Shown here in pieces: positions 72-14,518 of a stretch of DNA of 17,725 nt (position 1 is the first letter of the stretch; each line of letters begins with the position of its first letter). Source of the DNA: Bdellovibrionota bacterium. Lineage in GTDB: Bacteria; Bdellovibrionota_C; UBA2361. The position numbers and the translations under genes were made by a program. The stretch is taken from the NCBI GenBank assembly GCA_044352465.1, contig JBILDU010000065.1, positions 1 to 17,725 of the forward strand, in the 5' to 3' direction. The notes below the pieces were generated by a model that saw nothing but the letters and a program-made list of their open reading frames with translations, ran no database searches and had not been told where the DNA came from.

Positions 72-1439
72 CTAACCAACCTGTGGCAGAAGTCGCCCTA
101 ACGCACCCCTCAGAACCGCCCCCTGGGACTTCAACCCGCTCGACAGGCGCTCAAGCTCGCCCTTTGTCACCTCGAGGCCCAGATTGCCCGGAGCCCCAGT
201 TGAACGCTTTGCCTCAATATAGGGCATGGGATCAAGCGCGGCACCGTGCGCACCTTCCGCTTTCATCGCCCGGTACGCGTCACGAAAACTCACCCCCGCC
301 TTCACCTGCTCATAGGCCATATCGGTAGCAAAAAGCTCCGGGGTGCACGCCGCGCGACACCGCGCCGCATCAACTTCAAGTTTCTGAATGAGTCGCGTCG
401 CTAACGCCACCGAGAGGCCCACCAACTCGAAGCCACGCATCAACGGCTTCTTTGAAAGCTGAAAATCCCGATTGTACCCCGAAGGTAGATCGCACACATT
501 CAAAAGCGCTTGACTCTGGAGAGCCACGACCTCTTTGGCTTTGGCCCGCATCAACTCAAGAACATCGGGGTTCTTCTTCTGCGGCATGATGGAGGAGCCG
601 GTGCAGAACTCGGCGGGGAGTTTCACAAACCCCAACTCACCTTGGGAAAAAAATAGGAGATCGGTCGCCATCTTATTAAGGTCAACCGCGAGATGAGTCA
701 GGACTCCAAGAGCGAGGACCTCATTTCGTCCCCGCATATTCTGACAGTACATGACGTTACGCTGGACCCGCGCAAACCCGAGAAGCTCGGCTGTCATCTC
801 GCGGTCGAGCGGCAGGATGACGCCGTAGCCGGCGGCGCTCCCCAGCGGCGAGGAATCTATAAGATCTATCGTATCGCTCAAATATCGAAGCGTGTCGCAC
901 ACCCCCTCCGCAAAACTGCCCGCCCATAGGGCTAGGGTGGACGGCATCGCTTTTTGCAAATGGGTATAGCCGGGCATCGGAACCGGATGACTCATCGCAA
1001 ACTCAAGCAGCGCCCCACCGAGGGAACCAACCTGAGCCGCGAGATCGAAGAGCTCTACCTTCATATAGAGCTTCATTGCTGTGAGCACTTGGTCGTTACG
1101 CGACCGGCCCGTGTGAACCTTCTTACCGACCTCACCAACGCGCTGAACGAGATAGTTCTCAATGGCCGTGTGGCAGTCCTCGTCGCTCCGTTCAATCCTG
1201 AAATTCCCCGCACGGTGGAGCGCTACGATCTCTGTGAGACCCGATTCAAGCTCGGCAAGCTCGCGAGCATTCAAAACCCCGATCTTCTCAAGCATCACCC
1301 CGTGGGCCATGGAGCCGTAACAATCCCAGGGCACAAGCACACGGTCGATGAGGTAATCCTCCCCGACCGTGTACTCTTCGACGAGCGCGAGCAGCGCCTG
1401 GTCACTTTGATCTCCAGCACCGACTTCCCACAGCTTCAT
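72..1439 (-). CDS. argH: Argininosuccinate lyase
   Basis: 455 aa with fumarase/ASL superfamily motifs HTGRSRNDQ, MPGYTHLQ and GSSIMPQKKNPDVLE; lies directly downstream of argG. Confidence 0.96.
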   Translation of the reverse strand: MKLWEVGAGDQSDQALLALVEEYTVGEDYLIDRVLVPWDCYGSMAHGVMLEKIGVLNARELAELESGLTEIVALHRAGNFRIERSDEDCHTAIENYLVQRVGEVGKKVHTGRSRNDQVLTAMKLYMKVELFDLAAQVGSLGGALLEFAMSHPVPMPGYTHLQKAMPSTLALWAGSFAEGVCDTLRYLSDTIDLIDSSPLGSAAGYGVILPLDREMTAELLGFARVQRNVMYCQNMRGRNEVLALGVLTHLAVDLNKMATDLLFFSQGELGFVKLPAEFCTGSSIMPQKKNPDVLELMRAKAKEVVALQSQALLNVCDLPSGYNRDFQLSKKPLMRGFELVGLSVALATRLIQKLEVDAARCRAACTPELFATDMAYEQVKAGVSFRDAYRAMKAEGAHGAALDPMPYIEAKRSTGAPGNLGLEVTKGELERLSSGLKSQGAVLRGALGRLLPQVG

Positions 1440-1457: not shown

Positions 1458-2705
1458 CTACTTCGCCAACTTCGCTTTCATCTGCTGCGCGAGCTTCATT
1501 TGAAGGCTATAAACCTCAATGAATCCTGGTGAGCAGTTTTGATTAAACGACATATCCTTATTGAAAGTCGCGAGCTTCGAGTCGTACAGCGCATACTCGG
1601 AGCTCAGCGCTACCACATCGGCTTTCCCTTTATGGAGCTTCACCTTCACTGTGCCGGTCACCCGCTCGTTCACCTTATCGCAAAAAGCATGAAGATCGTC
1701 CATCAAAGGATCAAGCCATTGAGCACCGTAACAGAGCTGTGCCCATTTCTGATCGATCAAGGGCTTAAACTCATTTTCCATCCGGGTCGACACCAGCATC
1801 TCAAGCTTCTGGTGCGCTTTGATTAATATCTCTGCCCCGGGATGTTCGTAAACGCCGCGAATCTTTAGTCCAACCACCCGGTCTTCGATCATGTAATGCA
1901 CACCGACGCCGTGCTTTGCGCCGAGCTTGTTCGCCGCTTGAATGAGGTTCGCCAGCTTGAACTCCTCGCCGTTCAAAGTCCTCGGCAAACCCTTCACGAA
2001 TCCGATCTCGACGATCTCGGCGTTCTCCGGCGCATCCTCGAGCGCGCTCACCGTCAAAAACTTTTCGGTCTTCGGTATCTCGTGCATCTGCTCGATCTCG
2101 CCCGACTCCCAGGTCACTCCCCACATATTATCATCGCTGGAGTATGGAAAATCCGGGCGCTGGACAACTTCAATCCCGTGCTCCTGGGCGTAGGCGAGCT
2201 CCTCTTCCCGTCCCATCGCCCATTCCCGCACCGGAGCGATAATCTTGATGTTCGGCCGAAGTGCTAACGCTGTTGCCTCGATCCGCACCTGATCATTGCC
2301 CTTCCCGGTACACCCGTGAGCGATCGTATCAGCACCCTCTTTATCAGCGATCTCGATCGCTTTTTCCGCCATCAGATACCGCGAGATAGTGCTGATGTAA
2401 TAATCACCCTGGTAGGTTCCATTCGCTTTAATCGCCCGAGCAAGATACCGGTCGGCGAACTCATGCTTCAGATCCAGAACGTACGCCGCTTTCGCCCCCA
2501 GCTTCAGCGCTTTCGCCTTGATCTTCTCGAGATCATCAACTTGCTGCCCCAGGTCAAGCGTCAGAGTCACGACCTCGGCGTTATACTTGTCCTGAATCCA
2601 CTTCAGAATACAGCTCGTGTCGAGGCCACCGGAATACAGCAAGACGACTTTTTTGACTTCTCCGACTTTTCCCTCGTACGACGAGACTTTCTGATACGTA
2701 TTCAT
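1458..2705 (-). CDS. argG: Argininosuccinate synthase
   Basis: 415 aa with motifs LYSGGLDTS, AHGCTGKGNDQVR, APVREW, YSSDDNMWG and EDRVVGLKIRGVYEHP; SD-like AGAGGAG upstream on the minus strand. Confidence 0.97.
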   Translation of the reverse strand: MNTYQKVSSYEGKVGEVKKVVLLYSGGLDTSCILKWIQDKYNAEVVTLTLDLGQQVDDLEKIKAKALKLGAKAAYVLDLKHEFADRYLARAIKANGTYQGDYYISTISRYLMAEKAIEIADKEGADTIAHGCTGKGNDQVRIEATALALRPNIKIIAPVREWAMGREEELAYAQEHGIEVVQRPDFPYSSDDNMWGVTWESGEIEQMHEIPKTEKFLTVSALEDAPENAEIVEIGFVKGLPRTLNGEEFKLANLIQAANKLGAKHGVGVHYMIEDRVVGLKIRGVYEHPGAEILIKAHQKLEMLVSTRMENEFKPLIDQKWAQLCYGAQWLDPLMDDLHAFCDKVNERVTGTVKVKLHKGKADVVALSSEYALYDSKLATFNKDMSFNQNCSPGFIEVYSLQMKLAQQMKAKLAK

Positions 2706-2785
2706 CGAAATTACTCCTCTAAAGAAACTGTCTCTCTAGACTCACATCGGATGGGCGCGTCGATCAAGGCAGCACCTCGATATTT

Positions 2786-2831
2786 TGTCGCGGCACCGAC
2801 ATTTCTAGACTTATTTGTCTCATTTCGGACA
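2786..2831. promoter_or_regulatory. Tandem palindromic operator candidates, TGTC-N8-GACA x2
   Basis: Box 1 at 2786-2801 is TGTCgcggcaccGACA; box 2 at 2816-2831 is TGTCtcatttcgGACA. Both are preceded by TTT and followed by T, start 30 bp apart, and sit between the divergent arg transcription units. Confidence 0.65.
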
Positions 2832-2835
2832 TAAT
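2806..2835 (+). promoter_or_regulatory. Putative sigma70 promoter for the regulator-DUF1611-argCDFB operon
   Basis: -35 TAGACT (2806-2811), 18-bp spacer, -10 CATAAT (2830-2835). Box 2 fills the spacer and overlaps the -10. Confidence 0.5.
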
Positions 2836-2894
2836 GTTTATTCAGCCGGTTGCCCTGCCCAGCCGGTGTGGCATCTTTGATTAATGGAGCGCCT

Positions 2895-3533
2895 ATGTCG
2901 AGCATGATGGCTATCACTCAACGCTTTATCTCAGAGCACCCGAGCATTAAGGATTGTCTCCGGCGGGGCCTCGTGAACTATTCAGCGCTTGCGCGCCTTA
3001 TCTGTGAGACTCGTGGAGTCGATAAGTTTGAGGCCGTCCTCATCGCTCTGCGCCGCCAGCATACCCTGATAAAAAACCAACTACCGCAGGAGAAGAGGAT
3101 TATCACCCTTCTCAAGCGTGCCAAGATTCGACTCCGAAACAAAATGATGGTCGCGATCGTCGAGAAGCCGTCCGACTTCGAGCGGGTATACGAGATTCAA
3201 AAAAGGATCAAGAAAGATCGCGGCGACTTTCATCTCATCGAAGGAGAGGAGGTGATCACGATAATCTCCAACTCCGACTATGTCTCTGACGTCAAAGATA
3301 CCTTTCGGGGAAAGGTAAAGAAGATCACGGGGGACCTCGCCCAGCTCACCATGATCTTCGATGAGAAGATCGAAACAACTCCGGGGGTCGTCTCTTTTAT
3401 CTACGGGCTCCTCGCCGACAATTCTATCAACGTCTGGGAGGAGATGAGCTGCTGGACCGATTTTATGGTGATTATTGAGCAAAAAGACGCCGCTCGCGCG
3501 ATGCGAGTCTTAAGCCTCGAGGAAGAGGCTTAG
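2895..3533 (+). CDS. ACT-domain protein with an N-terminal HTH-like segment; putative amino-acid-sensing transcription regulator
   Basis: ATG at 2895 has GGAG upstream, so the ORF-track start at 2850 is probably too long; 212 aa. N-terminal helical segment EHPSIKDCLRRGLVNYSALARLI; C-terminal aspartokinase-type ACT signature TPGVVSFIYGLLADNSINVWEEMSCWTDFMVII. Confidence 0.75.
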   Translation: MSSMMAITQRFISEHPSIKDCLRRGLVNYSALARLICETRGVDKFEAVLIALRRQHTLIKNQLPQEKRIITLLKRAKIRLRNKMMVAIVEKPSDFERVYEIQKRIKKDRGDFHLIEGEEVITIISNSDYVSDVKDTFRGKVKKITGDLAQLTMIFDEKIETTPGVVSFIYGLLADNSINVWEEMSCWTDFMVIIEQKDAARAMRVLSLEEEA

Positions 3534-3565: not shown

Positions 3566-4615
3566 ATGAATAAGTTACAGCTCGATAAGATCGCTTCCTC
3601 GACCAGGAATTCAAACCTTCAACGTGAGGTGACGGTCACCGACGACATCGTGTCGAAGGAGGGTTACATTATCGCGGTGCGGGCGCTGACGGAGAAGAGC
3701 ATTTACAACACCGTCGAGCTGACCCCCGGCCGCATGAGTCGAATCTGTCAAGGCGATGTGATTGCCGGGGTGCTCGGCGCCCGCAATGCGCTCAAGGGCT
3801 ACAGCGGTGTGGTTCCGGAATCGCTTCACGTGGGGGACGTGCTCCAGATCTTGAACCTCGGTGCCGTTATTGGTCGCTGTACGAGCGACAACCCCGAGCT
3901 CGGCAGACCGATCGACGTCGAGGTCTTGGGTGCCGTGCTTTATTTCCCGTCTTTTCAGCACCGCATCGGGAAGCAAGCGAGCATTCATTCGGGGCCGGTC
4001 CACCCGACTGATACGCTGACCCACGCAGCGCCGCTGGTCATCGTCTCAGGGACCTGCATGAGCGCCGGAAAGACCCGCGCCGCATGCGAGATCGTGAAGC
4101 AACTCGCCCACTCGGGTAAAAAAGTTGCGGCCGCCAAGCTCTCCGGCATCAGTCTTCGGCGCGACACCCTCGAGATGCTTGATTTCGGCGCCACCGCTAT
4201 CTACGACTTCACCGACGCTGGCATCGTCTGCACGACCCCTCGCAACGTGGTGCAAGCAGCGAAAGGAATCGTTACGGCCCTCACGGCGCTGAACCCTGAC
4301 TGCATCGTCCTCGAACTCGGGGATGGGATTATGGGTGAGTACGGGGTGATGAATCTCCTCTCCGATAAGCAACTGATGGCGCATGTGAGGGCCCATGTTC
4401 TCTCAGCGAACGATCAGGTAGGCGCATGGGGAGCGGTGCAGTTTCTGGAGGGGAAATGCCCGCCGATCGATATCATCTGCGGACCGGCGACCGATAATCT
4501 GGTGGGCAAGCGCTTTATCAACGACAAGCTCGGCCGCTGCGCTTTGAACGCCATCAAGGACTCGGCAGCTCTCGGCGAAGCGATCGCGGCAAAACTTTTT
4601 CCTGGGGAACTATGA
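3566..4615 (+). CDS. DUF1611/DgcN-like P-loop protein, function unknown (candidate glutamate N-acetyltransferase)
   Basis: 349 aa with a beta-rich N-domain, deviant P-loop VIVSGTCMSAGKT, AAAKLSG, DFTDAG and Walker-B-like IVLELGDG. Its stop overlaps the argC start (ATGA, 4612-4615). CDS is solid; family is recalled from motifs; function is inferred. Confidence 0.7.
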   Translation: MNKLQLDKIASSTRNSNLQREVTVTDDIVSKEGYIIAVRALTEKSIYNTVELTPGRMSRICQGDVIAGVLGARNALKGYSGVVPESLHVGDVLQILNLGAVIGRCTSDNPELGRPIDVEVLGAVLYFPSFQHRIGKQASIHSGPVHPTDTLTHAAPLVIVSGTCMSAGKTRAACEIVKQLAHSGKKVAAAKLSGISLRRDTLEMLDFGATAIYDFTDAGIVCTTPRNVVQAAKGIVTALTALNPDCIVLELGDGIMGEYGVMNLLSDKQLMAHVRAHVLSANDQVGAWGAVQFLEGKCPPIDIICGPATDNLVGKRFINDKLGRCALNAIKDSAALGEAIAAKLFPGEL

Positions 4616-5622
4616 ACGTTGGGATCATCGGCGCATCGGGGTACGTGGGCTTAGAGCTTCTCCGGCTCTTAGCACTTCATCCCCATTTTAAGGTCACGTG
4701 GGTCACCTCACGTGAGCACCAGGGAAAAGCGGTGAGCTCGGTCCACACAGCGCTCCGCGGCGTCTATGACATCCCCTTCGCCGATTGCAGCACGCTGCCC
4801 CCGAATCTTGATATCGTCTTTCTGGCGGTGCCTCACGGCGAATCGATGCGCATCGCGGCCGAATTACGGGCGCAAGCGCCTCAGCTCAAGATTATCGACC
4901 TGGGCTCCGATTTTCGGTTAGACGCCGCAACCTACGAGGCGACATACCACCATCCCCACACCGCTCCAGCGCTGCTTGAAACAGCCGTCTACGGCACTCC
5001 GGAGATCTGCCCCGAAAGGATCGCCCAAAGCACTCTCGTAGCCAATCCAGGTTGTTTCGCCCACTGCATCATCTTAGCAACGGCGCCCCTGGCAAGGGCC
5101 AGGCTCATCGACGGGCGGATCAACATCGCGGCGGTGACAGGTTCCTCAGGTAGCGGTGCTCAAGCCACGCCAAGGACCCATCATCCCGAGAGAAACGAGT
5201 CGTTGAGCGCCTACCAGGTGCTGAAGCATCGCCACGTCCCAGAGATCGAGACGACCCTATCTCAGTGGGAGAGGCCGGTCGCCATCGATTTTGTCCCGAT
5301 CTCCGGGCCGCTCTCGCGGGGTATCTTTGCGACCTCGTTTGTTCCCCTCACCGATCGCACAGCTGATATCGAGTCGTGCTACGCCGAATTTGCCGAGATG
5401 AACCCGTTTATCCGGATCCGCACGGAGACACCTCGCTCACTCGAGGTGCGGGGCTCTAACTTCGTCGATATCTCCGTGCATCGCTCGGGCAACACCGCGG
5501 TTATCGTGAGTACACTTGATAACCTCGTCAAAGGAGCCGGCGGTAACGCGATTCAATCCGCCAATCTCATGAGTGGACTCCCCCCAACAACGGGACTTCT
5601 CTCCCCACCCCTTTTCCCGTAA
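4612..5622 (+). CDS. argC: N-acetyl-gamma-glutamyl-phosphate reductase
   Basis: GASGYVG nucleotide-binding loop, catalytic ANPGC, SSGSG, HRHVPE and DNLVKGAGGNAIQ. Confidence 0.95.
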   Translation: MNVGIIGASGYVGLELLRLLALHPHFKVTWVTSREHQGKAVSSVHTALRGVYDIPFADCSTLPPNLDIVFLAVPHGESMRIAAELRAQAPQLKIIDLGSDFRLDAATYEATYHHPHTAPALLETAVYGTPEICPERIAQSTLVANPGCFAHCIILATAPLARARLIDGRINIAAVTGSSGSGAQATPRTHHPERNESLSAYQVLKHRHVPEIETTLSQWERPVAIDFVPISGPLSRGIFATSFVPLTDRTADIESCYAEFAEMNPFIRIRTETPRSLEVRGSNFVDISVHRSGNTAVIVSTLDNLVKGAGGNAIQSANLMSGLPPTTGLLSPPLFP

Positions 5623-5633
5623 CGGAGCGTTTC

Positions 5634-6827
5634 ATGGAACCAACCTTCAGCGACATCAAGACAATCGAGGATGCCTATCAACTGAAGACCTATTCGAAAT
5701 TTCCACTCGCGATCGAACGGGGTGTGGGCGCCTATGTCTTTGACTCAGCGGGTAAGCGCTATCTCGATTTTTATGGAGGCCACTGTGTCACCGTCACCGG
5801 GCACTGCCATCCCCACATCGTCGGGGCGATAAAGAATCAGGCGGAGAAACTGATCTTTTACTCGAACATCGTCTATAACCAAACCCGCGCCACCGCCGCC
5901 AAGGCGCTCGTCGATTTCGCTGCCAATGGCATGTCGCAGGTCTTTTTCTGTAACTCTGGAGCGGAAGCGAACGAAACTGCGATCAAAGCGGCGCGTCGGC
6001 ACACGGGGAGATCCACTGTCATCAGTATGATCCACGGCTTCCACGGGCGCACGTACGGGGCGATGAGCATCACCGGCTTTCCGAAATATCGGATCTTTCC
6101 CCCGATGCTCCCCGCTACCGTGCACGCCGAGTTCGGCTCGATCGAGGCCATCGAAGCGATCGTATCTCGAGAGAACAGCGATGTCGCAGCGATTATTCTC
6201 GAGCCGGTGCAAAGCATGGCCGGGGTAAAGATGGCGGCGCCGGCGTACTACCGGGATCTCCGCGGGCTCTGCGACAAGAACGGCATCGTCCTTATCTTCG
6301 ACGAGGTCCAAACCGGCTTCGCTCGTACCGGTGCACCGTTCTTCGGTGATCATGTCGGTGTCACCCCGGACCTCATCACCTGCGCCAAGGGGATTGCGAG
6401 CGGAGTGCCCATGGGTGCGGTGATCTTCTCCCCTACCATAGCTTCAAAGATCGGTCTCAGCGAACACGGTGCCACCTTCGGCGGCTCCCCGATCGCATGC
6501 GCCGCTGCCACGGCAAGCCTTGAGGTAATTATCAACGAGCGTCTCGCCTCTCGAGCTAAAGAGCTTGGGGCTTATCTCGCTTGCTCGATTCAGGAGCTGA
6601 AGCTACCCCACCTTATCGAGGTGCGGGGGATCGGGCTTCTGCTTGGGCTCGCATTTGACTGCGAAGCGAAGAAACTGATCCCTGCTCTCCTCGAGGAGGG
6701 GGTCATCATCGGCTCCTCGGAGGACCCCAACGTGCTCCGTCTCATCCCCCCACTCACCATCTCTCAAGCTCACTGCGATGAGTTTTTAACCGCTCTTGTC
6801 CGCGCGAGTGAGAGGGCTTTTGCCTAA
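5634..6827 (+). CDS. argD: Acetylornithine aminotransferase (class III PLP-dependent)
   Basis: FFCNSGAEANE, FHGRT, IFDEVQTGFARTG, the PLP lysine in AKG, and HGATFGGSP; arg operon context. Confidence 0.92.
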   Translation: MEPTFSDIKTIEDAYQLKTYSKFPLAIERGVGAYVFDSAGKRYLDFYGGHCVTVTGHCHPHIVGAIKNQAEKLIFYSNIVYNQTRATAAKALVDFAANGMSQVFFCNSGAEANETAIKAARRHTGRSTVISMIHGFHGRTYGAMSITGFPKYRIFPPMLPATVHAEFGSIEAIEAIVSRENSDVAAIILEPVQSMAGVKMAAPAYYRDLRGLCDKNGIVLIFDEVQTGFARTGAPFFGDHVGVTPDLITCAKGIASGVPMGAVIFSPTIASKIGLSEHGATFGGSPIACAAATASLEVIINERLASRAKELGAYLACSIQELKLPHLIEVRGIGLLLGLAFDCEAKKLIPALLEEGVIIGSSEDPNVLRLIPPLTISQAHCDEFLTALVRASERAFA

Positions 6828-6835
6828 GGAATGAT

Positions 6836-7780
6836 ATGTTTGAACGAAGCTTAACCCGGGTAACAGATCTGACGCCCCTCGATATCCAGCGAGTGCTCAC
6901 GAAGGCCTTTAGCTTTAAGCGAAAACACGAGGAAGGGGTACGGCGCGAAAATGTCCTCGATGGGAAGGTCGTCGCCCTCCTCTTCGAGAAACCCTCGCTG
7001 CGAACCAAGGTCGCTTTTGAGGTCGCGACCCACTATCTCGGGGGCCAGCCGATATTCCTGTCGAGCTCCCAGATCCTCGCGAGCGGTGGTAACGAGCGGG
7101 GTCGCGAGTCGATCCCCGATATCGCGCGTAATTTAGAGCGTTTTTGCGATCTCATCGTCGCGCGGGTGTATCATCACGAGGTGATCGATGAGATCGCTCA
7201 AGCCGTCCGTACGCCGGTTATCAATGCGCTCTGCGACAAACATCACCCCACCCAGGCGCTGGCCGACCTGATGGCGATCCAATCGGTGGTGAAAAAGGAT
7301 CCGCGCGATATCTCCGTCGCTTTTGTCGGCGACGGAAATAACGTCGCGACCTCCCTCATGCAGATCTGCCTGATAAGCGGAATCAACTTTCGTATCGCGA
7401 CACCGGGGGGCTATGAAATCCCCTTGGTCGAGCATAAGGTGGGGGAATATCTCGCCCGGGGTAGTGGTGCAACGTACGCCGCCGTTCACGACCCTGCGGA
7501 AGCAGTACGAGGTGCGGATGTCGTTTACACCGATACCTTTACCTCGATGGGACAAGAAGGGGAAAAGGCGGCACGGAGCGCCGCTTTCGTGGGTTATCAG
7601 GTGAACGCGGATCTCATGGGGCTTGCATCGCGGGAAGCCGCCTTTATGCACTGCCTGCCCGCTCATCGGGGAGAGGAGGTTACAGACGAGGTGATGGATT
7701 CTCCTCAGTCGATCGTCTTCGATCAGGCGGAGTGTCGACTCCATGTGGCCAAAGCATTGATTGCATCGTATCTATCGTAG
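6836..7780 (+). CDS. argF: Ornithine carbamoyltransferase
   Basis: FEKPSLRT carbamoyl-phosphate motif, HPTQALAD, GDGNNV, DTFTSMGQE ornithine loop and HCLPAHRGEE. Confidence 0.95.
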   Translation: MFERSLTRVTDLTPLDIQRVLTKAFSFKRKHEEGVRRENVLDGKVVALLFEKPSLRTKVAFEVATHYLGGQPIFLSSSQILASGGNERGRESIPDIARNLERFCDLIVARVYHHEVIDEIAQAVRTPVINALCDKHHPTQALADLMAIQSVVKKDPRDISVAFVGDGNNVATSLMQICLISGINFRIATPGGYEIPLVEHKVGEYLARGSGATYAAVHDPAEAVRGADVVYTDTFTSMGQEGEKAARSAAFVGYQVNADLMGLASREAAFMHCLPAHRGEEVTDEVMDSPQSIVFDQAECRLHVAKALIASYLS

Positions 7781-7797
7781 ATCAAAGAGGGGGACTG

Positions 7798-8706
7798 ATG
7801 GACCGGATGAAAGCCTTAACCGAGATCTTACCGTACGTTCGAGAGTTCGTTGGGCGGACATTTGTCGTAAAGATCGGAGGAGAGATCTGCTCCGGGAACT
7901 ATCTTGCCGGGATCGCCGAACAGGTCAGCCTCCTTCATCACATGGGTATTAAAGTCGTGCTCGTCCACGGCGGTGGCCCCCAGATGGACGAACTTCTCGG
8001 TGAGCTCGGGCTTGAACCTAAAAAAGTGGCTGGTCGTCGTATCACCGACACCCCGACGCTACGGGCGGCAAAGATGGCGTTCAAGGGGGTGCTCAATACC
8101 GATATCGTCGCAGCATTAAAGACCCACGGCGCGCTCGCGGTCGGACTCTCGGGCGCTGACGGTAGCATCATCATCGCCGAAAAGCGCCCGCCGACAAGGG
8201 GAAAGGCGGAGTCGGGCGAAATCGTTACCATCGACTACGGGCACGTCGGTGAAATCGTGGTCGTGAATCCGAGCCTCATACAGACACTCTTAGGGCAAAA
8301 CTATATTCCGGTGGTCTGCTCCCTCGGAATCGGCGCAGACGGTGCTCTTTACAATATCAACGCTGACACCATCGCCGCTGAGCTCGCTCGAGCAGTATCA
8401 GCGGCGAAACTTGTTCTCATGACGAACGTCCCAGGACTTCTACGTGACATCAAAGACCCAACGAGCCTCATCTCCTACACCGACATCGCATCGCTCTCAA
8501 ATATGGTCAAAGACGGAGTCATTAAAGATGGCATGCTCCCCAAGATCGAGGCGTGCATATCAGCGGTGCAGCGCGGTGTCTCACGCACCCATATCGTCGA
8601 CGGCACCCGCCAGAACTCCCTTCTGCTTGAGCTTTTCTCTAATGAGGGCTGCGGCACGATGATCGTTGATACCGACGAGAAGCGGCACTATGAAGCCTCA
8701 AGCTGA
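7798..8706 (+). CDS. argB: Acetylglutamate kinase
   Basis: ATG at 7798 with AGAGGGGG upstream (the track start at 7732 overlaps argF). Motifs VVKIGG, VHGGGPQ, GRRITD, NINADTIA, MTNVPG, GMLPKI and ELFSNEGCGT. Confidence 0.95.
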   Translation: MDRMKALTEILPYVREFVGRTFVVKIGGEICSGNYLAGIAEQVSLLHHMGIKVVLVHGGGPQMDELLGELGLEPKKVAGRRITDTPTLRAAKMAFKGVLNTDIVAALKTHGALAVGLSGADGSIIIAEKRPPTRGKAESGEIVTIDYGHVGEIVVVNPSLIQTLLGQNYIPVVCSLGIGADGALYNINADTIAAELARAVSAAKLVLMTNVPGLLRDIKDPTSLISYTDIASLSNMVKDGVIKDGMLPKIEACISAVQRGVSRTHIVDGTRQNSLLLELFSNEGCGTMIVDTDEKRHYEASS

Positions 8707-11608: not shown

Positions 11609-13552
11609 ATGACGAATTACGACCCCGGCTTGGATCGCCCCGGCGATCGAGCCGACTTATCCCAATTATCAATTCCCCGTAATCGCTCTCCGCTGCCGCC
11701 GGCTAAGCGAGCGCTGACGTTTGAGATCAACCCCGAGTGTAAATACTTTGTCTCATGCGTAGACACCGAGCGAGCGCTCGAGCCGTGGATCAAGAGTATT
11801 GGGGAAAAACTTGGCAAAAGACCTGAGGAGATACTCCCCACTTTGAAGCCGCTCTACGAGGATTTCGTCGGAAAGGTCATGGGGCAAATCAACGGCTGTG
11901 GCTTCCAAGTGATCTTGCTGCCGTCACGTATCCTTGAGACCAGGCTTCGCGATAATACGAACGGTCTTTTCACGGTTTCTTTGAACGCGGGGGATGCATG
12001 GTGCGATTTCCGGCTCGAACTCTCTCGTCGATTCGACAGCGCGGGTAAAGAGCTGCTTGGGATGACCGCACGCCCGGGGGCTCCAACCATCGAGGAGCAG
12101 CTCACTGCACTGCGCGCGCAGCTCGAGCGCCGCGGAATAAAGAGCATATGCCTCGTCGATGACCACGCTTTCTCCTGCCGCACTCTCGAAAGTGCGGTCG
12201 AGGCGCTCGAGTCGATAGGCATTGGGGTAAGCCAGATCGCCGTTCTCTCTCAGGTCGGAGATTCGGCTGTGCTAGCTCGCCGAGGAATTCCGATTATTCC
12301 GGCATGTCGCTTCGTTGGCCCAGAGGGGGCGTCGGTCCTCGACTGCGTTGAGTTAGTTGAGGCGCGGTATTTCCTCCTCGGGAGTGCTGGCTGTGTGGTC
12401 GACCTCGGAGGTGGAGTGAAAGGCCGCGCGCCGTACCTCCTGCCCTTCGCCGATCCGACGAACCGAGCGAGTATTCCACCGGAGCGCGCAGTAGCATTCT
12501 CAATCACGGCTCTGCGTTACAACGCCGAATTCTTTGCTGCTATCGAACGTGAATTTGGGGTGAGGTTAACAGCAGCTGATGGGCGTGCCGATGCGACTAC
12601 GGTTCTCGAGCGGTATGGTATCGAAGCCGCTCAGCCGCTCCAAGAAGCCGCTGAGAGTGTCGCCAAACGCCTCGAAGCAGGTCTCCGTGAAGGAGGTCCG
12701 TGGTCCAACGCCTCTCCCCGCAGGGCAGAGGAATTGGGGCAGGCCCTGCGGGCGGCCAACCTTCCACAGCGGTGTCTCTTTCTTGATGTGAACGGAACCC
12801 TGATCGAGCGCGGACAGTCGGGGATCGCTGCCGGGGCGGAGGAGCCCTTAAAGGCTGAGATCCGACGGCTTCAAGGGCAAGGGGTCGCGGTGGGGTTGTG
12901 TTCCGATAGTCCCGGGATTCCCCTTCAGAGGCTCGCTCAGCAACTCGGTATGCGGGGTCCGATTCTGGCGGAGAATGGGAACTTACTCCTCACCGACCGG
13001 GATTCCGTGGTGCTCACTCCCCTACCAAATCGTGCGGAGCTCGAAACGCAAATTCGAAGCATCGCCCGCGCAAACGGGATCACCGAGGAGCCCGCGATGG
13101 AGGCGGTCGATTTTGGTGGCTCACCACCCGATCTGCGTGGTCGCTTCGCCTTTGGGCGAGGCCGACAGACCTCGGTGGCGTGCTTTGGAGACCCCAGATT
13201 CATCGCCCGACTTGAGTTAGTAAGCCGTGAGCAGGGCTGGGCTCAGACGTTCGGCGTGAGCCTCGATTGCAATCCCAACTGGGGACCGTACGGGGTCGCG
13301 ATAGCGCACCCCGGGAGCGCCGTGGTCGCGGGCAAGGGCATGGCCCTCGATCTTTTGACTCGCTATGGTATCGAGCGATCGTGGATCATCGGTGACGGTG
13401 CTGCCGATTGTATCGAGGGCAATAGCAAGGTGAGAAGTTTTCTCGTGGGGCAGCTCGGCTCCCCGCTTGGAGCACGGGCTGCGCGAGCCACCCCACAGGC
13501 GGGACTTGCAGCGGTAATCGAGCTTATGAATGAGGTCAGCAAGGAGGCGTAG
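11609..13552 (+). CDS. Fusion protein: type I phosphoribosyltransferase-like domain plus Cof-type HAD hydrolase domain
   Basis: 647 aa. PRPP-loop-like ICLVDDHAFSCRTL near nt 12146-12187. HAD motif I FLDVNGTL near nt 12780, motif II GLCSDS, ILAENG, Lys in GKG and motif IV IIGDGAAD. Confidence 0.7.
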   Translation: MTNYDPGLDRPGDRADLSQLSIPRNRSPLPPAKRALTFEINPECKYFVSCVDTERALEPWIKSIGEKLGKRPEEILPTLKPLYEDFVGKVMGQINGCGFQVILLPSRILETRLRDNTNGLFTVSLNAGDAWCDFRLELSRRFDSAGKELLGMTARPGAPTIEEQLTALRAQLERRGIKSICLVDDHAFSCRTLESAVEALESIGIGVSQIAVLSQVGDSAVLARRGIPIIPACRFVGPEGASVLDCVELVEARYFLLGSAGCVVDLGGGVKGRAPYLLPFADPTNRASIPPERAVAFSITALRYNAEFFAAIEREFGVRLTAADGRADATTVLERYGIEAAQPLQEAAESVAKRLEAGLREGGPWSNASPRRAEELGQALRAANLPQRCLFLDVNGTLIERGQSGIAAGAEEPLKAEIRRLQGQGVAVGLCSDSPGIPLQRLAQQLGMRGPILAENGNLLLTDRDSVVLTPLPNRAELETQIRSIARANGITEEPAMEAVDFGGSPPDLRGRFAFGRGRQTSVACFGDPRFIARLELVSREQGWAQTFGVSLDCNPNWGPYGVAIAHPGSAVVAGKGMALDLLTRYGIERSWIIGDGAADCIEGNSKVRSFLVGQLGSPLGARAARATPQAGLAAVIELMNEVSKEA

Positions 13553-13558
13553 TCAAAT

Positions 13559-14518
13559 ATGATAGACCAGAGCAACCCCACAATCGTGATCGACACCGAT
13601 CCAGGCGTCGATGACATTCTGGCGATTTTCTTTGCCCTTGGATCGAAGGCTGTGCAAGTGGCTGGATGCACCACCTGCATGGGCAATGCCCCCCTCGATA
13701 TCGTCACTCGAAACCTCGCCTTCGCACTCGGAGCTGTAGGTCATGAATCGGTGCCGATTTACACCGGAGCCGCCGCGCCGTCGAATCAAGCCCCGGTTTG
13801 GGCATCGACACACGGAGTTCAGGGACTCGGCCGAATTGTGCCTGACCCTTTTCCGATACCGACTGCCGGGAGTGCGCGTGATAAGTTCACTCGTGGGGCC
13901 GCGCTCCCCTATCAACTCGTGGCGCTCGCCCCTTTAACGAATATCGCCCAGGCGCTGAGCACAGACCCGCGGTGTTTCGATCGATGCAGCCGACTCATCA
14001 TCCTCGGTGGAGCTATCACTGCCCCGGGAAATAAAAGCGCTGTAGCTGAGTTCAACTTTTTCTCCGACCCGGAGGCAGCGGATGCGGTGCTCGCGCAGTG
14101 CCCGTGTCCGATCACACTCATTCCGCTCGACCTGTGCTATACTGCTGTCATTGCTCTCAGCGATCTCGAACGGGTGGAGGACCCAGAGTTTCGTTCCTTC
14201 TTGATGCACCTGTGCGAACCGTACGCCGTGGGGGGCGAACGGGAGGAGGGTATTCCCGGAATAATCCTCTACGATCCGCTCGCTGTCTTTGCGGCGATCG
14301 CACCAGACGCCTTCACCTATACCCCCGCAGCAGTTCGGGTCGACACCGGCCAGAGCCACGCCCGCGGGATGAGTGTAGCGGATCGCCGCCTTCGCTCAAC
14401 GACCCCGCCAAACGTCACCGTTGCAACCGCGGTGGATTTGGCTGCTTTCAGAGCCTCGTTCTTCGCAGCCCTGAATCGCCTGCGCTATGCCCCGCGCTAT
14501 CGTTTCCGCGTCACCTAG
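13559..14518 (+). CDS. Nucleoside hydrolase (IU-NH/Rih family)
   Basis: DTDPGVDD Ca/ribose motif, HGVQGLG, ALAPLTNIA, GNKSAVAEFNFFSDPEAA and LYDPLAV. SD AAGGAGG lies in the end of the upstream gene; 6-nt gap. Confidence 0.92.
   Translation: MIDQSNPTIVIDTDPGVDDILAIFFALGSKAVQVAGCTTCMGNAPLDIVTRNLAFALGAVGHESVPIYTGAAAPSNQAPVWASTHGVQGLGRIVPDPFPIPTAGSARDKFTRGAALPYQLVALAPLTNIAQALSTDPRCFDRCSRLIILGGAITAPGNKSAVAEFNFFSDPEAADAVLAQCPCPITLIPLDLCYTAVIALSDLERVEDPEFRSFLMHLCEPYAVGGEREEGIPGIILYDPLAVFAAIAPDAFTYTPAAVRVDTGQSHARGMSVADRRLRSTTPPNVTVATAVDLAAFRASFFAALNRLRYAPRYRFRVT

Follow-up and report, generated by a model that had tools for sequence, protein, structure and literature searches.

A DUF7523 and tandem-ACT protein as a candidate arginine-responsive repressor in Bdellovibrionota and DPANN-type archaea

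INTRODUCTION

Arginine biosynthesis is a textbook regulon, and many lineages lack ArgR. What could regulate the arg genes in such a lineage? The question is raised by the stretch of DNA analysed here (the window, 17,725 nt, from a Bdellovibrionota bacterium), in which the arg genes lie in two divergent groups and the first gene of the rightward group encodes a 212-residue protein, termed X212 below. A sequence-only reading had proposed it to be an autoregulatory, arginine-responsive transcription factor of an uncharacterised family. Our analysis leads to a similar view: X212 is probably a transcription factor of the one-component type that senses an amino acid, belongs to an uncharacterised family and represses arg genes through a palindromic site. 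Its likely role is that of an arginine-responsive, autoregulated repressor of a new family, a functional analogue and not a relative of ArgR.

The N-terminal domain of X212 belongs to the Pfam family DUF7523. Searches of openly accessible literature found no paper on DUF7523 and, under the topics of ACT domains, regulators of arginine genes, archaea and DPANN, nothing on the X212 family.

RESULTS

Gene organization at the locus

The features of the locus are collected in Table 1. The X212 reading frame is real: it runs from ATG to TAG behind a GGAG and agrees with its homologues at the N-terminus. A longer frame would begin at TTG 2850; ATG 2895 is preferred because homologues begin at the same residue.

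Table 1. Features of the X212 locus, in window coordinates
Feature	Position	Strand	Basis or remark
argH, argininosuccinate lyase	72..1439	-	Pfam Lyase_1 and homology to argH of other loci
argG, argininosuccinate synthase	1458..2705	-	Pfam Arginosuc_synth, Arginosuc_syn_C; divergent, shares operator region
Second candidate operator, TGTCGCGGCACCGACA	2786..2801	.	Exact core match, 30 bp upstream of primary
Promoter-like site, -35 TAGACT, 18-nt spacer, -10 CATAAT	2806..2835	+	Consensus match only
Primary candidate operator, TGTCTCATTTCGGACA	2816..2831	.	TGTC-N8-GACA; exact palindrome, top PWM match
Shine-Dalgarno-like GGAG	2886..2889	+	Read from sequence, 5 nt before ATG of X212
X212 CDS (DUF7523 and tandem ACT, 212 aa)	2895..3533	+	ATG 2895 to TAG 3533, stop included
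X212 N-terminal five-helix domain, residues 1-76, putative DNA-binding head	2895..3122	+	Pfam DUF7523, AF2
X212 tandem ACT domains, residues 77-206	3123..3512	+	AF2, Foldseek, VIA; ACT_7/ACT_9 in relatives
Y349, 349-aa protein, second gene of operon	3566..4615	+	No known family
argC	4612..5622	+	Co-oriented downstream of Y349
argD	5634..6827	+	Co-oriented downstream of argC
argF	6836..7780	+	Co-oriented downstream of argD
argB	7732..8706	+	Longest ORF; ATG 7798 falls past the argF stop

As the sequence-only reading had described, X212 is the first gene of the rightward arg operon. It heads a tight cluster, X212-Y349-argCDFB, divergent from argG-argH; the argC, argD, argF and argB block spans 4612..8706 (+). 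That reading had also noticed that the window has no argR. The same is true of the host genome (3.13 Mb, 94.89% complete), where, as in the window, the ArgR profiles PF01316 and PF02863 gave no matches.

The second gene, Y349, has no family assignment in Pfam or NCBIfam at E ≤ 0.01 and matches no solved structure by sequence at E ≤ 10; there is a weak match to the P-loop family DUF1611 (E 0.02). Since the host genome has neither ArgJ nor a full ArgA, Y349 is a possible enzyme for the first step of the pathway.

Domains of X212

The AlphaFold2 (AF2) model of X212 (pLDDT 91.3) has five helices followed by two ACT units. The ACT-type repeats suspected from the sequence are borne out by this model, in which residues 77-206 form two beta-alpha-beta-beta-alpha-beta units with the predicted fold of aspartokinase regulatory domains, which places X212 in the ACT superfamily: Foldseek matches the pair to 2zho_B (E 1.6e-8), and VIA matches residues 71-212 to 5yei_C (Z 14.0, rmsd 2.9, 139 residues aligned). 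By sequence X212 itself falls just below the ACT_7 cut-off (25.3 against 27), and ACT_7 and ACT_9 are matched in all 24 scanned family members at E ≤ 0.1 (best 1e-9). The second ACT domain holds a conserved loop, E160-T-T162-P-G164-V.

The N-terminal domain matches Pfam DUF7523 (PF24367) with 30.3 bits (E 6.2e-7), above the gathering cut-off of 27. The match covers only residues 4-60 (positions 2-55 of the 158 in the profile), and the family is also matched by 23 of the 24 aligned relatives. Two stretches are conserved, G25-L-V-N28-Y-S30-A-L32-A-R34 and A51-x-R53-R54, with N28, S30 and L32 invariant in the 24-sequence alignment. X212 has no match to PF01316 or PF02863 (Pfam, E ≤ 0.01 and ≤ 0.1), nor a Pfam match to the HTH_AsnC and RAM (AsnC_trans_reg) families of Lrp/AsnC, and a sequence search of solved structures gave nothing at E ≤ 1.

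A helix-turn-helix (HTH) had been proposed for this domain along with the tandem ACT, and only the ACT part of that proposal is carried by the predicted structure. The N-terminal segment singled out earlier, GLVNYSALARLI, does fall in helices 2-3 of the model. Folded alone, the domain is modelled with pLDDT 88.7, and Foldseek finds no match for it in the PDB at E ≤ 0.001. Its best VIA score, Z 5.7, is under the tool's noise level for helical domains, and in a wide VIA search five chains reached Z ≥ 5 and no chain reached Z ≥ 8. Weak as they are, the leading matches come from the tRNA-binding domains of GlnRS and GatB, amid homeodomains and winged helices at Z 4-5 (homeodomains, ScpB and Z-alpha reach only Z 4-5). 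An HTH fold is thus unconfirmed, since the best matches are weak and mixed (Z ≤ 5.7). Single relatives give weak Pfam hints, to HTH_74 (E 0.048) and to the Rv0623-like transcription factor family (E 1.2e-4). Among ESM Atlas look-alikes of residues 1-76 there are only unnamed or DUF7523 clusters (scores ≤ 0.89), and restriction to named clusters left no usable match.

Predicted homodimer. X212 is predicted to homodimerise with ipSAE 0.65 (runs 0.65, 0.67 and 0.65; best control 0.00); the runs share at least 92% of contacts, and the partner pLDDT is 86. In calibration the same mark was reached by 20 of 30 one-chain-pair structures and 1 of 23 single-chain structures, counts that are only rough for X212 because an alignment of our own was used. 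The pass may in part reflect likeness to solved aspartokinase ACT dimers. The predicted interface includes residues 24-28, 31-32 and 35 of the putative HTH, which makes the DNA-facing surface uncertain.

A palindrome at the X212 promoter

Two copies of the palindrome TGTC-N8-GACA lie between argG and X212. The primary copy fills the spacer of the promoter-like site and overlaps its -10 hexamer by two bases; that site is the one promoter-like match in 2650-2950, where shuffles give 0.3. A position weight matrix (PWM) built from X212 relatives only, with the window left out, ranks 2813-2834 first in the 3.13-Mb genome with 25.8 bits, the next site having 17.8. The second copy scores weakly (10.5 bits). 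In a relative with 89% identity (locus L001) the primary copy is conserved, and the left half alone of the second. Pairs spaced 30-31 bp are found at nine other X212 loci, and the window pair is the only one in the host genome in which exact palindromes lie 18-45 bp apart.

A wider regulon in the host genome was considered and set aside: the lesser PWM matches (≤ 17.8 bits), which adjoin amidase/flagellin, NUDIX/MipA or SecA/HemN-like genes, were treated as chance. Palindromes with at most one mismatch number 621 in the genome, too common to be interpreted as a regulon.

Distribution and gene neighbourhoods

With 224 genomic relatives confirmed and the N-domain profile matched by 961 representative proteins (clusters) at E ≤ 0.001, the family extends far beyond chance. 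By their labels the best 80 loci are 49 archaeal (DPANN-type) and 31 bacterial (Bdellovibrionota, Oligoflexia, Pseudomonadota and similar), so that the earlier description of such proteins as mostly archaeal is roughly right. One bacterial-labelled copy (L071) groups with archaeal copies in a quick tree.

Arginine genes are frequent in the neighbourhoods: arg, car or argS genes lie within 8 kb of X212 at 50 of 80 loci, the other 30 having no arg-related gene within that distance. In 17 of 79 loci argG is directly divergent from X212.

ACT proteins also serve as enzyme subunits (the ACT beta-subunit for aspartokinase, IlvH for acetolactate synthase), and the first step of the arginine pathway is classically feedback-inhibited by arginine. 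X212 might therefore sense arginine as the regulatory subunit of an enzyme in this pathway, Y349 being the obvious partner as a candidate first-step enzyme. The two genes are adjacent and co-oriented, 32 nt apart, the ACT pair resembles aspartokinase regulatory subunits best, and the absence of ArgJ and full ArgA leaves room for Y349 at the first step. We nonetheless give this only a slim chance. Y349 accompanies X212 at just seven loci by ORF clustering (8 of 80 by tblastn), and most X212 genes adjoin argG, argJ-type clusters or unrelated genes. Usually X212 and the arg genes are divergent around a palindrome, a layout that is characteristic of regulators, not of subunits. Nor were fused longer forms of X212 found at E ≤ 0.001, which by the tool's own rating is weak evidence.

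ArgR in the phylum. ArgR_C is absent from 100 of 124 genomes of the phylum. Mutual exclusion of ArgR and X212 does not show in the raw counts: ArgR_C occurs in 6 of the 36 genomes with a strong X212 orthologue (E < 1e-40; set picked by hand) and in 18 of the 88 others. Beside argG, ArgR and X212 exchange position within the phylum.

The palindrome across homologues and arg genes

Upstream of X212 homologues (≤ 300 nt), TGTC-N8-GACA with at most one mismatch is present at 59 of 78 loci (bacterial 21/29, archaeal 38/49). In fifty shuffles of the 78 upstream regions the count averaged 5.6 and never exceeded 12, and unrelated genes of the same loci have it at 49 of 632 upstream regions. Counting the window, 60 of 79 loci carry the palindrome, 26 of them an exact one.

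Arg genes have it too. Separate palindromes stand upstream of argJ, argF, argG, argB and argC in archaeal loci. Exact palindromes were counted in 6 of the 127 upstream regions that belong to arg-related genes and in 6 of the 632 remaining ones (Fisher p 0.0076). Among archaeal sites asymmetry is common (TGTCC...AAACA), and the right half-site varies with residue 31, in the putative recognition helix: proteins with Ala have 19 GACA and 6 AACA, those with Ser or Lys 4 GACA and 19 AACA, a co-variation that is confounded by phylogeny.

A comparison within the phylum separates X212 from argG. Where X212 is divergent from argG, the argG intergenic region holds an exact palindrome in 6 of 7 genomes; where ArgR takes that position, even one with a single mismatch is found in none of 6. 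On this comparison the palindrome tracks X212, not argG, as would be expected if X212 stands in for ArgR. As a conserved cognate site in both the X212 promoter and those of putative targets, the palindrome fits a sequence-specific transcription factor, and comparative genomics points to X212 as its probable binder.

The palindrome might still be bound by another regulator, with X212 belonging to the arginine regulon as a stand-alone ACT sensor and its head contacting a protein partner, for example an enzyme or the true regulator. No known DNA-binding fold matches the N-domain significantly, part of its putative HTH lies inside the predicted dimer interface, and stand-alone tandem-ACT proteins match X212 well (1zvp, Z 11.9; 1zhv, Z 11.2), all of which would suit that arrangement. 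We judge it unlikely, because the palindrome accompanies X212 in bacteria and DPANN-type archaea even where no arg gene is nearby, X212 is the sole gene common to all palindrome loci, and the palindrome is missing beside argG where ArgR replaces X212. Neighbour clusters moreover offer no second conserved regulator candidate.

The fold matches of the N-domain suggest a further reading, to which we assign a very slim chance: an RNA- or tRNA-binding module of the GatB/YqeY tail or GlnRS N-terminal type, by which arginine sensing would be coupled to tRNA(Arg) or translation in place of transcription. The leading matches, all weak, are GlnRS N-terminal domains (4ye6, Z 5.7, rmsd 5.4, 73 residues aligned; 3tl4, Z 5.4), YqeY (8xje, Z 4.4) and GatB (3ip4_B, TM 0.64, query-normalised), and 12 X212 loci have an arginyl-tRNA synthetase gene. 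All these fold scores are inside the tool's stated noise range, however, and a conserved DNA palindrome would be left unexplained. Where argS adjoins X212 (L044 and L055), the two are divergent with an exact palindrome between, as for a regulated target.

DISCUSSION

Proposed mechanism

Repression of the arg genes by X212 itself is the reading we prefer. The palindrome is in the gene's own promoter, recurs in other arg promoters and has its top genome match at this locus, which speaks for the autoregulatory transcription factor first proposed. X212 would homodimerise through its ACT domains, as the model predicts, and the two helical heads would each read one half of the 16-bp TGTC-N8-GACA. 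Since the primary operator lies within the X212-Y349-argCDFB promoter, between its -35-like and -10-like hexamers, bound X212 would block RNA polymerase there and repress its own operon. From the position of the weaker second operator, which faces argG-argH, argGH would probably be repressed as well. In archaeal relatives the palindrome abuts a TATA box, and X212 would there compete with TFB/TBP.

The effector is most likely L-arginine, to judge from the gene context. It would bind to the second ACT domain, on the E-T-T-P-G-V loop at the interface of the dimer, and act as a co-repressor, as it does for ArgR.

It is possible, though we put it somewhat below an even chance, that X212, its palindrome and argG-argH form a self-contained cassette that crossed the archaea-bacteria boundary and works with two unrelated transcription machineries, from between the -35 and -10 of a sigma-70-type promoter in bacteria and from beside the TATA box, where TFB binds, in DPANN-type archaea. 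If so, it would be an amino-acid switch that is portable and independent of the machinery, of which nature offers few examples, and also the arginine regulator so far missing from DPANN archaea and from this Bdellovibrionota-like lineage.

Significance

The work yields a protein family, a 16-bp candidate operator and a list of predicted targets. If the proposal is confirmed, a DUF would have a function, the known folds of transcription factors would gain a new DNA-binding head, and DPANN-type archaea, for which few recognisable regulators are known, would have a defined metabolite-responsive switch. X212 would also offer a compact part, responsive to arginine, that may function in hosts of either domain, bacterial or archaeal.

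Comparison with known systems

ArgR/AhrC. The predicted job is the same: an arginine-dependent, autoregulated arg repressor with palindromic operators, often in tandem, and in six related genomes ArgR holds the X212 position divergent from argG. Both proteins would have a DNA-binding head (putative in X212) followed by an alpha/beta domain for ligand binding and oligomerisation. They show no sequence relation, X212 lacking both ArgR Pfam domains, and the sensor of X212 is a tandem ACT; the ArgR hexamerisation domain 1b4b is a partial match (Z 7.6, 68 residues aligned) that overlaps one ACT unit. X212 is predicted to be a dimer, perhaps a dimer of dimers, whereas ArgR is a hexamer, and where ArgR acts at the ARG box, the candidate operator of X212 is TGTC-N8-GACA.

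Lrp/AsnC. This family, also of bacteria and archaea, likewise comprises small one-component amino-acid sensors with an N-terminal DNA-binding head and a C-terminal ACT-like (RAM) domain, a beta-alpha-beta-beta-alpha-beta unit; the ligand sits at subunit interfaces. LysM, an archaeal regulator of the lysine/arginine pathway, belongs to it (FFRP). X212 differs in having two aspartokinase-type ACT units (ACT_7, ACT_9) instead of one RAM, and its DUF7523 head, of five helices, is of another kind.

Regulatory (beta) subunit and C-terminal tandem ACT domains of aspartokinase. X212 keeps the Pro-Gly ligand loop and, as predicted, the ACT-mediated dimerisation. Unlike the subunit it has no kinase partner nearby, carries an additional N-terminal helical domain, and is found in an arg-gene and not an asp-pathway context, with a palindromic DNA site.

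CASTOR. Aspartokinase-type ACT domains bind amino acids, and CASTOR1 binds arginine, in a pocket at the ACT2-ACT4 interface. The parallel drawn earlier between X212 and CASTOR1 stands as a general likeness of tandem ACT domains and is not a close one: VIA gives Z 7.8 for CASTOR2 (9kpb) and Z 7.4 for CASTOR1 (9kp4), a moderate fold likeness with no sequence relation seen, against 14 for aspartokinase. Each CASTOR has four ACT units and each X212 chain two, so the predicted dimer would unite four. CASTOR signals through protein-protein contact, not DNA.

Stand-alone tandem-ACT proteins. VC0802 (1zvp) and Atu0741 (1zhv) share the ACT_7-type tandem fold with X212 and, unlike it, have no DUF7523 head. 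Matches to the head also come in pairs: among the 150 best N-domain matches, seven are proteins of double length (436-510 aa) in which two stretches match the N-domain, which is consistent with a dimeric functional unit, and one of the four scanned against Pfam has two DUF7523 stretches.

The X212 gene and its cluster

X212, encoding a 212-aa protein with a DUF7523 head and tandem ACT domains, is the first gene of a tight co-oriented cluster, X212-Y349-argC-argD-argF-argB, where Y349 is an unknown gene for a 349-aa protein. Because argG and argH are divergent from this cluster, the intergenic region 2706–2894 between argG and X212 is a divergent control region, as the sequence-only reading had it. 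We prefer the ATG at 2895 to the start of a longer TTG ORF at 2850, because GGAG lies 5 nt upstream and homologues agree on the first residue. That reading had also proposed an arginine sensor and repressor independent of ArgR, and the genome (94.89% complete) indeed has no match to PF01316 or PF02863, the profiles used for ArgR.

Coordinates of features in the window and in loci of X212 relatives
Feature	Sequence	Position	Strand	Remark
argH	window	72–1439		divergent from X212 cluster
argG	window	1458–2705		divergent from X212 cluster
TCTAGACT, first copy	window	2735–2742		
Palindrome 1	window	2786–2801		exact, intergenic
TCTAGACT, second copy	window	2804–2811		
−35-like TAGACT	window	2806–2811	+	18-nt spacer to −10-like
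Palindrome 2	window	2816–2831		exact, intergenic
−10-like CATAAT	window	2830–2835	+	
X212	window	2895–3533	+	intact ORF, 212 codons
Y349	window	3566–4615	+	cluster member
argC	window	4612–5622	+	cluster member
argD	window	5634–6827	+	cluster member
argF	window	6836–7780	+	cluster member
argB	window	ends 8706	+	cluster member
647-aa ORF	window	11609–13552	+	
Nucleoside hydrolase	window	13559–14518	+	inosine-uridine type
Carbamoyltransferase	L002	4211–5215		
Carbamoyltransferase	L003	10793–11728		
Carbamoyltransferase	L004	10909–11910		
Carbamoyltransferase	L006	10911–11909		
Small archaeal ORF	L053	~7730–7830		also L037, L048, L013, L019, L033 and others
Second X212 copy	L009	4495–5100		divergent

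Protein families and predicted fold

X212 belongs to both the ACT superfamily and DUF7523. Its residues 4–60 match the Pfam family DUF7523 (30.3 bits against a cut-off of 27), covering only profile positions 2–55 of 158, and residues 148–206 fall just below the cut-off for ACT_7 (25.3 against 27); among 24 aligned relatives all matched ACT_7 and ACT_9 and 23 matched DUF7523. NCBIfam gave faint aspartate-kinase tails and nothing more, no solved structure related by sequence was found, and at source the relatives are annotated as ‘hypothetical protein’, ‘aspartokinase’ or ‘ACT domain-containing protein’. The part of the literature covered, with subscription journals outside its scope, yielded nothing on the DUF7523/X212 family.

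A confident AlphaFold2 model (pLDDT 91.3, from a 24-sequence alignment) has five helices (residues 4–75, the N-domain) followed by two beta-alpha-beta-beta-alpha-beta units (77–206). The expected tandem ACT is thus borne out: the pair resembles aspartokinase regulatory subunits and domains (Foldseek, 2zho_B, E 1.6e-8; VIA, 5yei_C, Z 14.0, rmsd 2.9 over 139 aligned residues) and stand-alone ACT_7 proteins (VIA, 1zvp Z 11.9, 1zhv Z 11.2), whereas the Z scores for CASTOR2 and CASTOR1 are only 7.8 and 7.4, so that the comparison once drawn with CASTOR1 holds as a general ACT likeness and nothing closer. The aspartokinase matches would suit a regulatory subunit of an enzyme, a very unlikely reading when set beside the inverted repeat found upstream of X212 genes. 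The N-domain folds well by itself (pLDDT 88.7) and has no Foldseek match among solved structures at E ≤ 0.001; its VIA scores reach at most Z 5.7, in a weak list where homeodomains and winged helices stand alongside tRNA-binding domains of GlnRS, GatB and YqeY. The helix-turn-helix in the earlier proposal is therefore not callable from structure, and this unclassified head counts against a regulator reading. A tRNA- or RNA-binding sensor, to which the tRNA-binding domains on that list would point, is the least probable reading that we weighed.

Distribution and variant forms

Relatives were sought in one genome per species; 224 were found and the best 80 loci kept. By record titles 49 of these 80 are archaeal (Woesearchaeota, Nanoarchaeota, Iainarchaeota and similar labels) and 31 bacterial (Bdellovibrionota, Oligoflexia, Pseudomonadota, Dadabacteria). 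In a quick maximum-likelihood tree built from 78 loci and the window (79 rows; L002 and the divergent second copy of L009 omitted), one branch parts bacterial from archaeal copies (SH-aLRT 97), and bacteria with seven archaeal rows form a supported set (99); L071, labelled Nomurabacteria, clusters with archaeal copies. The window's argG is 66–74% identical to argG of several DPANN-labelled loci (L007, L009, L010, L019, L026, L031, L061, L068) and only 32–36% identical to that of bacteria of its own lineage (L003, L004, L006). These comparisons suggest that the argGH-regulator module was transferred across domains, for which one transfer, in either direction on this unrooted tree, would suffice.

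At E ≤ 0.001 a profile of the N-domain matched 961 representative proteins. Of the best 150, almost all have about 200–230 aa and the same layout, and seven are double-length forms of 436–510 aa with two N-domain matches (P0069, P0076, P0077, P0126, P0158, P0164, P0180), which fit a dimeric unit; Pfam found two DUF7523 stretches in one of the four scanned. SAP is a DNA-binding motif, and one protein of 237 aa (P0184) carries a SAP domain N-terminal to its DUF7523 head. Many genomes of the phylum have a second, more distant copy of about 215–260 aa (E 1e-10 to 1e-31 against the X212 profile; G066, G067, G068, G114, G011, G030, G072, G079, G099 and others), and genus g34 has distant copies only. 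Such paralogues may sense other amino acids.

Gene neighbourhoods

Locus ORFs were called, clustered and named with Pfam. Recurrent neighbours, counted by loci, are argG (28), argH (23), argF and argB (18 each), argC (17), argD and arginyl-tRNA synthetase (12 each), argJ (8), Y349 (7), carA (5) and carB (3). At least one arginine-related gene lies within 8 kb of X212 in 50 of the 80 loci (49 of 79 parsed by script, plus L002), and the gene directly upstream is a divergent argG in 17 of 79 (argH, argB and argS, two each). The other 30 loci have no such gene nearby, a point against an arginine regulator; in bacteria, for instance, the arrangement aminotransferase, EVE-domain gene, X212, LpxK recurs.

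A candidate operator

Read side by side, the upstream regions of X212 genes share the inverted repeat TGTC-N8-GACA. With at most one mismatch it lies within 300 nt upstream in 59 of the 78 loci whose upstream sequence is 100 nt or longer (bacterial 21/29, archaeal 38/49), against 5.6 on average and 12 at most in shuffled regions, and against 49 of 632 regions upstream of other, unrelated genes of these loci. Counting the window there are 60 of 79, 26 of them exact, and pairs 30–31 bp apart occur in the window and nine other loci. In archaeal loci the palindrome directly adjoins a TTTATATA-type box that lies ~25–30 nt upstream of the start codon. Away from X212, palindromes also precede argJ, argF, argG, argB, argC and an unnamed arg-cluster gene; among upstream regions, 6 of 127 arg-related ones and 6 of 632 others carry an exact copy (Fisher p 0.0076), although such p-values overstate the case, the loci being related and so not independent.

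At least 14 of 49 archaeal loci, and none of 29 bacterial, have a conserved small ORF of ~27–43 codons between the palindrome or TATA box and the X212 start, by a strict regular expression that missed the similar-looking L007, L026 and L031. Its two types (MQKDLSEWIDV... and M..QTELS.YFDI...) could be a partner protein or a leader peptide.

Of 124 species genomes of the window's phylum, 24 contain ArgR_C and 36 a strong X212; ArgR co-occurs in six of these 36, a point against the regulator reading. The divergent neighbour of argG is X212 in eight genomes, the window's included, and ArgR in six others. The exact palindrome is present in six of seven X212-type argG intergenic regions (contigs already among the loci counted), and with at most one mismatch in none of the six ArgR-type regions, which are new data; the palindrome thus goes with X212, not with argG. 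Another factor could nonetheless bind it, X212 being a member of the regulon that does not itself bind DNA, which we judge unlikely.

In the window, the only promoter-like match in 2650–2950 has its spacer filled and its −10 overlapped by palindrome 2, a position fit for repression. A matrix made solely from sites of bacterial relatives, scanned over the whole 3.13-Mb genome, ranks the site at 2813–2834 first (25.8 bits against 17.8 for the next); palindrome 1 is weak (10.5 bits), and the next-ranked matches adjoin unrelated genes. In L001, an 89%-identical relative, the intergenic region has diverged and palindrome 2 and the −10 are intact. The two copies of TCTAGACT, 69 bp apart, are also kept there, the first as TTCTAGACTC and the second as TAGACTT, the −35-like hexamer. 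Several relatives (L010, L024, L032) have an extra GAC(A/T) half-site 5–6 nt upstream of the palindrome. These elements may be a second half-site or a promoter element for argG.

Predicted dimer and proposed mechanism

Two X212 copies are predicted to pair (ipSAE 0.65; runs 0.65, 0.67 and 0.65, with at least 92% contact agreement and partner pLDDT 86), against a best control of 0.00. In calibration 20 of 30 same-chain pairs and 1 of 23 single chains reached the mark, counts that hold only roughly here because a custom alignment was used, and solved aspartokinase ACT dimers may have contributed to the pass. The predicted interface comprises the conserved IEG (112–118) and EMSCW (182–187) strands, the T-P-G loop (163–167) and N-domain residues 16–35, the last of which make the DNA-facing surface uncertain. 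Residue 31, in helix 3, co-varies suggestively with the right half-site (Ala with 19 GACA and 6 AACA; Ser or Lys with 4 and 19), a pattern confounded by descent.

We rate X212 as a probable regulator of a new one-component, amino-acid-responsive family for which a candidate operator is now defined. Its dimer would use helix 3, whose S30 and R34 vary little if at all, and perhaps also R53 and R54, to read the palindrome; arginine would bind the loop of the second ACT domain and strengthen DNA binding, and X212-Y349-argCDFB, probably with argGH, would be repressed. Such a protein would work much as ArgR does and is similar in design to Lrp/AsnC, but its sequence matches neither family.

Y349 and other genes

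Searches of Pfam and NCBIfam at E ≤ 0.01 place Y349 in no family; its sequence contains a Walker-like GTCMSAGKT, and the DUF1611 P-loop matches it faintly (E 0.02). By tblastn it occurs with argC in 8 of 80 loci, one labelled Iainarchaeum. The window's genome has neither ArgJ nor a full-length ArgA, TIGR01890 being matched only by ArgB and a 134-aa GNAT-like ORF on contig C7. A distant DgcN homologue, ACG33_RS14135, is predicted to be ArgA in the GapMind 2026 preprint, and by analogy Y349 may be an alternative N-acylglutamate synthase. In four bacterial loci (L002, L003, L004, L006) the carbamoyltransferase of the X212-Y349-argC cluster has only 26–29% identity with the ornithine carbamoyltransferase of the window; an acyl-ornithine carbamoyltransferase is a possible identity, which would fit an acylated pathway after Y349. 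Farther along the window, a 647-aa ORF with only a sub-threshold HAD-like stretch (E 0.0096) is followed after 7 nt by a nucleoside hydrolase gene, and the two may form a nucleoside-related pair.
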